In this document: in pieces, positions 42,756 to 42,953 of the stretch
How the letters are laid out: the number at the start of each line of letters is the position of its first letter
Position numbering within the stretch: the stretch's first letter is position 1
Assembly (NCBI RefSeq): GCF_055900595.2
Contig: NZ_CM148325.1
Direction: 5' to 3' (one strand)
Length of the DNA: 64,000 nt
Translations under genes and position numbers: made by a program
The notes under the pieces: model-generated
What the model saw: only the letters and a program-made list of their open reading frames with translations
Told to the model about the DNA's origin: nothing
Databases searched by the model: none

Positions 42756-42795
42756 AGGGCGCGCATATTAACTTTGTAACGTCATAGAGTCAAAG

Positions 42796-42950
42796 AAAAA
42801 GGCAGCCTGTGGTTGCCTTTTGCCAATAATTCGCACACATTGCGGGTTACTGCTTTATTTTCGTTCAGTGCTGATAACGAACATCAACCTGCAAAACGAA
42901 GCGCATAGTTTAAAATGGCTATCATCAATACGCTATATCTGTTGGAAAAA
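42796..42950 (-). ncRNA. sraB: Candidate small RNA SraB in the yceD-yceF intergenic region
   Basis: K-12 has sRNA SraB between yceF and yceD, codirectional with yceD (recalled). A terminator-like hairpin with T-tract on the minus strand (42796-42821) lies ~40 nt upstream of the yceD ATG; the 5' end is not determined from sequence. Confidence 0.35.
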
Positions 42951-42953
42951 AAT

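Follow-up and report, generated by a model that had tools for sequence, protein, structure and literature searches.

Between the divergent genes yceD and yceF, a hairpin followed by a run of T residues lies close to the start of yceD, which raises the question of whether it ends a discrete small RNA (sRNA) or merely belongs to the leader of yceD, and, in the former case, where this RNA begins and which parts of it are conserved. We addressed this question in a window of 64,000 nucleotides (NCBI RefSeq assembly GCF_055900595.2, contig NZ_CM148325.1), where the intergenic region spans exactly positions 42756–42953, from the yceD ATG (42755–42753, minus strand) to the yceF ATG (42954–42956, plus strand). 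Both genes, yceD (42234–42755, minus strand, 173 amino acids, Pfam PF02620) and the Maf-like yceF (42954–43538, plus strand, Pfam PF02545), were assigned by the list of open reading frames, their Pfam families and the K-12 annotation. A first reading of the letters, hereafter the sequence-only reading, had proposed that the region harbors the sRNA SraB, oriented like yceD and provided with a terminator of its own.

Identity of the sRNA and its terminator

This identification was correct: the element is the known enterobacterial sRNA gene sraB (also psrD or pke20), a locus that is already catalogued. We scanned the whole window with Rfam 15 at gathering thresholds, and the SraB family (RF00077) matched the minus strand at 42960–42792 over its entire length (model positions 1–169 of 169, not truncated), with 203.5 bits (E = 2e-42) against a gathering score of 130 bits. 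Synteny leads to the same assignment. The curated record of K-12 MG1655 lists the ncRNA sraB (b4418) at 1146589–1146757, and the two loci align without gaps at 99% identity, with four differences in 361 bp. Two of these fall within the 169-nt element as annotated (42792–42960, minus strand), which is the homolog of b4418 and identical to it at 167 of 169 positions, with zero indels. The transcript thus runs in the direction of yceD at the very position of K-12 SraB, as the sequence-only reading had it, and the spacing is the same in both genomes, with a 7-nt overlap with the start of yceF and a 36-nt gap to the yceD ATG. As for the two substitutions, position 19 (A here, T in K-12) lies upstream of the probable transcription start site (TSS), and position 82 (C here, T in K-12) in the loop of the 5′ hairpin described below; base pairs are untouched by both. 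The sraB stretch is found in 5424 of 5426 complete E. coli genomes, and the PGAP-annotated records carry yceF and yceD only at this place. As the case of sraB shows, an sRNA gene can be recognized from its sequence alone.

That a discrete transcript exists is known from the literature, in which SraB was detected by Northern blot, in vitro transcription and RNA-seq in K-12 and by RNA-seq in Salmonella, and in which it is reported as an abundant RNA that co-purifies with ProQ.

Some further elements were observed elsewhere in the window. The RNase E 5′ UTR element (rne5, RF00040) gave a full-length Rfam match at 44821–45157 on the plus strand (260 bits), as expected upstream of rne, and naRNA4 (RF02564) was matched at 22301–22376 on the minus strand (70.9 bits, gathering score 59.5), with a similar naRNA4 match in a Citrobacter locus (L065, 618–700). 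Two identical insertion sequences of the IS200 family, each 714 bp long, lie in direct orientation and 6831 bp apart at 28776–29489 and 35607–36320, one between fhuE and ptsG and the other between pabC and fabF; each contains an open reading frame for a Y1 transposase (PF01797) and an Rfam match to STnc490 (146.4 bits).

Towards the 3′ end of SraB, the minus strand reads GGCAACC (42817–42811), ACA and GGCUGCC (42807–42801), followed by the U-tract UUUUUCUUU at 42800–42792, which is the 3′ end of the RNA by direct reading. The hairpin at 42801–42817 noticed in the sequence-only reading is thereby confirmed, and it forms the G+C core of a longer helix, AAAAGGCAACC-ACA-GGCUGCCUUUU (42821–42797, minus strand), which includes the flanking A and U runs and consists of 10 pairs and one A × C mismatch. 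Folded alone, the element from 42826 to 42792 has a free energy of −11.2 kcal/mol, and the terminator has a pair probability of about 1.0 in the ensemble, in the 169-nt form as well as in the 109-nt form discussed below. The U-run ends 36 nt before the ATG at 42755, in good agreement with the earlier estimate of about 40 nt.

For comparison, we collected 80 yceD loci from other Enterobacteriaceae and one Erwiniaceae; 80 loci were analyzable for the −10 box counts given below. Across 80 enterobacterial loci, the terminator is conserved as a structure. The motif CCTTTTTCTTTGACT is almost invariant in 81 sequences, pairing in the helix holds for 89% of cells over these 81 sequences, with 54 distinct rows, versus 34–50% in slid controls, where the structure was derived from the SraB family itself and the alignment was not structure-aware, and four apical pairs show compensatory changes. 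The hairpin, UUUUUCUUU and the conservation of the helix in 81 sequences bear out the view that SraB possesses its own terminator. A simple terminator scan did not report it on the minus strand, probably because the internal mismatch and the loop limit break the stem rule of the scanner; this is a limit of the scanner and not evidence against the terminator. The same scan reported a weak terminator on the plus strand (42827–42849), which merely mirrors the second SraB hairpin on the opposite strand and lacks a gene upstream that it could terminate, and which we took as chance.

Promoter and length of SraB

In a reanalysis of dRNA-seq and Cappable-seq data, every data set placed the SraB TSS 60 bp further downstream than the annotated 5′ end (PMC7967276), at K-12 position 1146649 (Suppl. 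Table S1 therein). According to the same study, SraB's precise length was already discussed in the original description, which mentioned a product of ~105 nt, and the Salmonella RNA measures about 99 nt. The study further describes a downstream promoter that fits the TSS from RNA-seq, and a promoter for the annotated long form that is 'deceptively attractive' but unused in RNA-seq. Transferred through the gap-free alignment, the published TSS corresponds to position 42900 on the minus strand. It falls on U, an unusual start base, so that the mapped position may be off by one. The RNA that starts here and ends at 42792 is 109 nt long and folds into three hairpins, and it is, judging from the transferred TSS and from folding, the probable main form of SraB in vivo.

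The −10 box of the conserved promoter, TAAACT (42907–42912, minus strand), lies 7 nt upstream of 42900 and is followed by ATGCGC. In 79 of the 80 analyzable loci, it is present at a constant distance from the start of yceF; the corresponding −35 region, TAGCGT, is poor. By sequence reading and comparison with K-12, the −10 box of the annotated long-form promoter is TAAAAT (42966–42971, minus strand) and lies inside yceF codons. Only six of 80 loci have TAAAAT at this position, and in about half of the loci the hexamer ends in C; the box is specific to E. coli.

Folding points in the same direction. The 109-nt RNA (42900–42792) has a minimum free energy of −33.1 kcal/mol and a z-score of −2.86, matched by one of 200 dinucleotide shuffles, the full 169 nt reach z = −1.36, and for the 5′ 60 nt on their own, folding does not exceed the chance level (z = +0.62). 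These 60 nt contain three conserved blocks, CATATTTTTT, TATAGCG and CATTTTAAACT, at about −53 to −46, −37 to −31 and −17 to −7 relative to 42900, between which the sequence varies among the aligned loci; their spacing would suit UP, −35 and −10 elements. Because the conservation of TAAACT, the folding scores and the published TSS agree, we favor the 109-nt form. SraB probably starts mainly at 42900, as a three-hairpin RNA of 109 nt and not of the annotated 169 nt, and the additional 60 nt would mostly represent promoter DNA and the 5′ region of yceF.

The relation to yceF changes with the length of the RNA. Two yceF TSSs have been mapped to K-12 positions 1146625 and 1146700 (PMC7967276, Suppl. 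Table S1), which transfer to 42924 and 42849 on the plus strand, both on A. For the proximal one, a candidate −10 box, TAAAAT (42911–42916, plus strand), lies within AGTTTAAAATG, which is invariant in the alignment. In this same element, the candidate box overlaps the SraB −10 box (42912–42907, minus strand) back to back by 2 bp, and the two divergent promoters may compete for RNA polymerase. The 109-nt SraB overlaps 52 nt of the long yceF 5′ UTR (distal TSS 42849) and none of the proximal transcript (42924); the data sets reviewed showed weak yceF transcription or none (PMC7967276). The annotated 169-nt form has a 7-nt overlap with the yceF coding sequence, whose first 7 nt are complementary to its 5′ end. 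An RNA of 150–170 nt that overlaps the yceF start in antisense, as envisaged in the sequence-only reading, fits this curated form, but the main 109-nt species probably does not reach the yceF start codon.

If the functional RNA were nevertheless the annotated 169 nt, it could act as a cis-antisense regulator that covers the ribosome-binding region and the start codon of yceF. Such an RNA would be complementary to the start codon, the first 7 coding nucleotides and the whole proximal 5′ UTR, it would have a good −10 box (TAAAAT, 42971–42966), and both the curated annotation and the Rfam model give this length, which the original description had discussed (PMC7967276). We consider this improbable, however, given the start at +60 in all data sets with the upstream promoter unused and the Salmonella RNA of about 99 nt (PMC7967276), together with the occurrence of the upstream TAAAAT in only six of 80 related loci and a 5′ segment that folds no more than shuffled sequence. 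The 169-nt boundary in Rfam and in the K-12 record, then, probably takes in 60 nt of promoter.

Internal hairpins and distribution among relatives

The two hairpins that precede the terminator in the 109-nt RNA differ in their distribution among relatives. The second one (42824–42852, minus strand, predicted by folding) has an inner stem CGCA/UGCG with the loop AUGUG, which is almost invariant across genera (50 of 54 distinct rows); its outer stem is not kept outside the E. coli group. As the stem is nearly invariant, it yields no covariation signal and is uninformative with respect to structure. The conservation of this hairpin, like that of the 5′ 60 nt, could also reflect a function of the yceF promoter or 5′ UTR on the other strand.

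The 5′ hairpin (42860–42900, minus strand, from folding and alignment) lies within an insertion of ~56 nt (42849–42904) that occurs only in Escherichia, Salmonella, one Citrobacter and Intestinirhabdus. The insertion is absent in 69 of 78 measured sequences, and there the yceF start is 56 bp nearer to yceD. Within a sample of six sequences, the hairpin covaries, with pairs kept through AU↔GC, UA↔CG and GU↔CG double changes. A small open reading frame of nine codons in this hairpin (MFVISTERK, with an AUG start) was rejected, as its AUG is missing in the alignment of Salmonella and Citrobacter.

Counted from the conserved promoter, the predicted RNA measures 52–54 nt in 69 other loci and 144–179 nt in three. 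The latter (L056 and L060 with 144 nt, L052 with 179 nt) carry other, longer insertions, which differ by 35 nt and contain a second copy of TTAAACTAT. The short homologs, found in Enterobacter, Klebsiella/Raoultella, Kosakonia, Kluyvera, Leclercia and others, resemble the SraB of the window in their TAAACT promoter, their CCGCAAUGUGUGCGAA hairpin, their terminator and their fusion to the yceD promoter. They differ in that they possess neither the ~56-nt insertion nor the 5′ hairpin, and with their 52–54 nt they remain below the Rfam gathering score. Among the loci of the relatives, this score was reached only in E. albertii, Salmonella and Citrobacter; the short-type homologs and Intestinirhabdus were not detected at the gathering threshold, and we traced the distribution by BLAST modules and motif counts in place of the Rfam model. 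The ~53-nt homologs of most Enterobacteriaceae escape the Rfam model as a result of its boundary, which probably extends over 60 nt of promoter.

One locus, from Escherichia sp. MOD1-EC7003 (L003, around 1358–1411), stands apart. Its YceD is 99% and the 3′ 54 nt of its SraB are 100% identical to the window, but identity drops to 81% for YceF, and the 56-nt insertion is missing. This pattern suggests a recombination breakpoint inside sraB.

The junction with yceD and the function of SraB

The 3′ end of SraB is directly joined to a promoter-like element of yceD(-rpmF). A promoter scan found TTGACT (42793–42788), a 17-nt spacer and TAATAT (42770–42765) on the minus strand (42765–42793), and this arrangement occupies an identical position in 81 of 81 sequences; its hexamers are constant while the spacer changes in several genera, as would be expected if the promoter were functional. 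The U-tract merges into the −35 box, such that the last two U of the annotated SraB are the first two T of TTGACT. Between the −10 box and the yceD ATG lies a G+C-rich discriminator, GCGCGCCCT (42756–42764, minus strand), reminiscent of rRNA promoters and of promoters under stringent control; TGCGCGCCCT is identical in all 81 sequences, and GCGCGCC, which follows TAATAT, is part of the invariant element. With only 9 nt between the end of the −10 box and the ATG, and no Shine-Dalgarno sequence within 42756–42764, the yceD(-rpmF) mRNA from this predicted promoter would possibly be leaderless or nearly so. Our search of the literature on a leaderless yceD retrieved nothing relevant, and an experimental yceD TSS was not found in the supplement text of the Cappable-seq and SMRT-Cappable-seq studies. 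Two promoters of yceD, yceDp1 and yceDp2, were reportedly described by Tanaka in 1989. The tight fusion of SraB to the conserved yceD-rpmF promoter suggests one place to look for the function of the sRNA.

Along these lines, one may picture an ancestral two-hairpin RNA of ~53 nt with an invariant TAAACT promoter, to which the insertion was added in Escherichia, Salmonella and Citrobacter, next to a near-leaderless yceD on which it acts in cis. In that case, the conserved unit may differ from what the curated 169-nt boundary delimits, the inserted, covarying 5′ hairpin would be antisense to the distal yceF 5′ UTR, and transcription and termination of SraB might influence initiation at yceD-rpmF, through occlusion of the promoter or coupling of tandem promoters, either alongside an action in trans or in place of it. 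Taken as a whole, we regard this combination as speculative and rather unlikely.

The proximity to yceD also suggests another relationship, which the sequence-only reading had itself named as a way in which its proposal could fail: SraB might be only an attenuator, i.e. a yceD-rpmF leader that begins at a yceD promoter further upstream, terminates prematurely and serves no separate function. SraB is indeed co-directional with yceD and ends 36 nt before its ATG, both promoters have a G+C-rich sequence after the −10 box, and SraB is repressed by ppGpp in Salmonella, as expected for a ribosomal-protein promoter. Moreover, one of the two yceD promoters reportedly described by Tanaka in 1989 could be that of SraB. 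Yet when the nascent RNA was folded without the 3′ arm of the terminator, the 5′ arm stayed unpaired and no anti-terminator was found, in accordance with a terminator probability of about 1.0. Likewise, the predicted promoter lies between the terminator and the ATG in 81 of 81 sequences, and yceD would thus not depend on read-through, although read-through from the SraB promoter into yceD is possible. The predicted promoter and the folding of the nascent RNA argue against a mere attenuator, and as SraB is in addition an abundant and specific ligand of ProQ according to the literature, with a lineage-specific hairpin kept by compensatory changes, we consider this explanation very unlikely. Very unlikely, too, is the notion that conservation acts only on the DNA (the divergent yceF and yceD promoters with their UP or operator sites) and that the RNA is a functionless by-product. 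In its favor, the conserved blocks of the 5′ 60 nt occupy the sites of UP, −35 and −10 elements, the U-tract coincides with the DNA that adjoins the yceD −35 box on its upstream side and overlaps it, and the second hairpin is conserved in sequence and not by covariation. On the other side, the compensatory changes at the apex of the terminator and within the 5′ hairpin indicate selection on the pairing of the RNA rather than on the DNA sequence, and the literature reports specific ProQ binding of the RNA as well as a phenotype in Salmonella.

The properties of SraB reported in the literature are in line with an RNA that functions as such. It is among the RNAs most enriched in co-immunoprecipitations with ProQ, and the K-12 RNA forms a 1:1 complex with ProQ in vitro, according to hydrogen-deuterium exchange (HDX), SAXS and gel shift experiments; its contacts on ProQ comprise the FinO domain, the linker and the C-terminal domain. 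Cross-links with Hfq are reported as well. Its levels are repressed more than 4-fold by ppGpp in late stationary phase in Salmonella and induced about 5-fold after inhibition of replication, and an effect on how well S. Enteritidis survives in egg albumen is reported. The literature gives no established target.

We consider it very likely that sraB is an independent minus-strand gene with its own intergenic promoter and a strong Rho-independent terminator, whose main product is probably a 109-nt RNA, most likely ProQ-stabilized and base-pairing. It would be transcribed from the promoter with the TAAACT −10 box, starting at 42900, and would end at the hairpin 42821–42797 with the U-run to 42792. 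By analogy with other RNAs of the ProQ class, this structured RNA would be stabilized by ProQ and pair with other transcripts; the only partner predicted from the sequence is the long yceF 5′ UTR from 42849, to which nucleotides 1–52 of the 109-nt form are complementary without a mismatch. What our analysis adds to the known gene is a refined annotation, with a conserved promoter that backs the 109-nt form, a hairpin insertion that is lineage-specific, and an invariant yceD promoter to which the gene is fused.

In its yceF–yceD position and its terminator, the SraB described here equals K-12 SraB (PsrD, pke20), and it is the same gene. With the attenuation leaders of ribosomal-protein and biosynthetic operons, it shares a terminator just upstream of an operon, here yceD-rpmF, in the same direction. 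Unlike these leaders, however, the SraB region has no anti-terminator and, in the alignment, no leader peptide common to E. coli and Salmonella, and it features a separate, invariant promoter downstream of the terminator. The other ProQ-binding sRNAs are likewise highly structured and have an intrinsic terminator hairpin of the kind recognized by the FinO domain of ProQ. Within this group, the Sib RNAs act in cis as antisense antitoxins on defined targets and cspE derives from a 3′ UTR, whereas SraB is an independent intergenic transcript.
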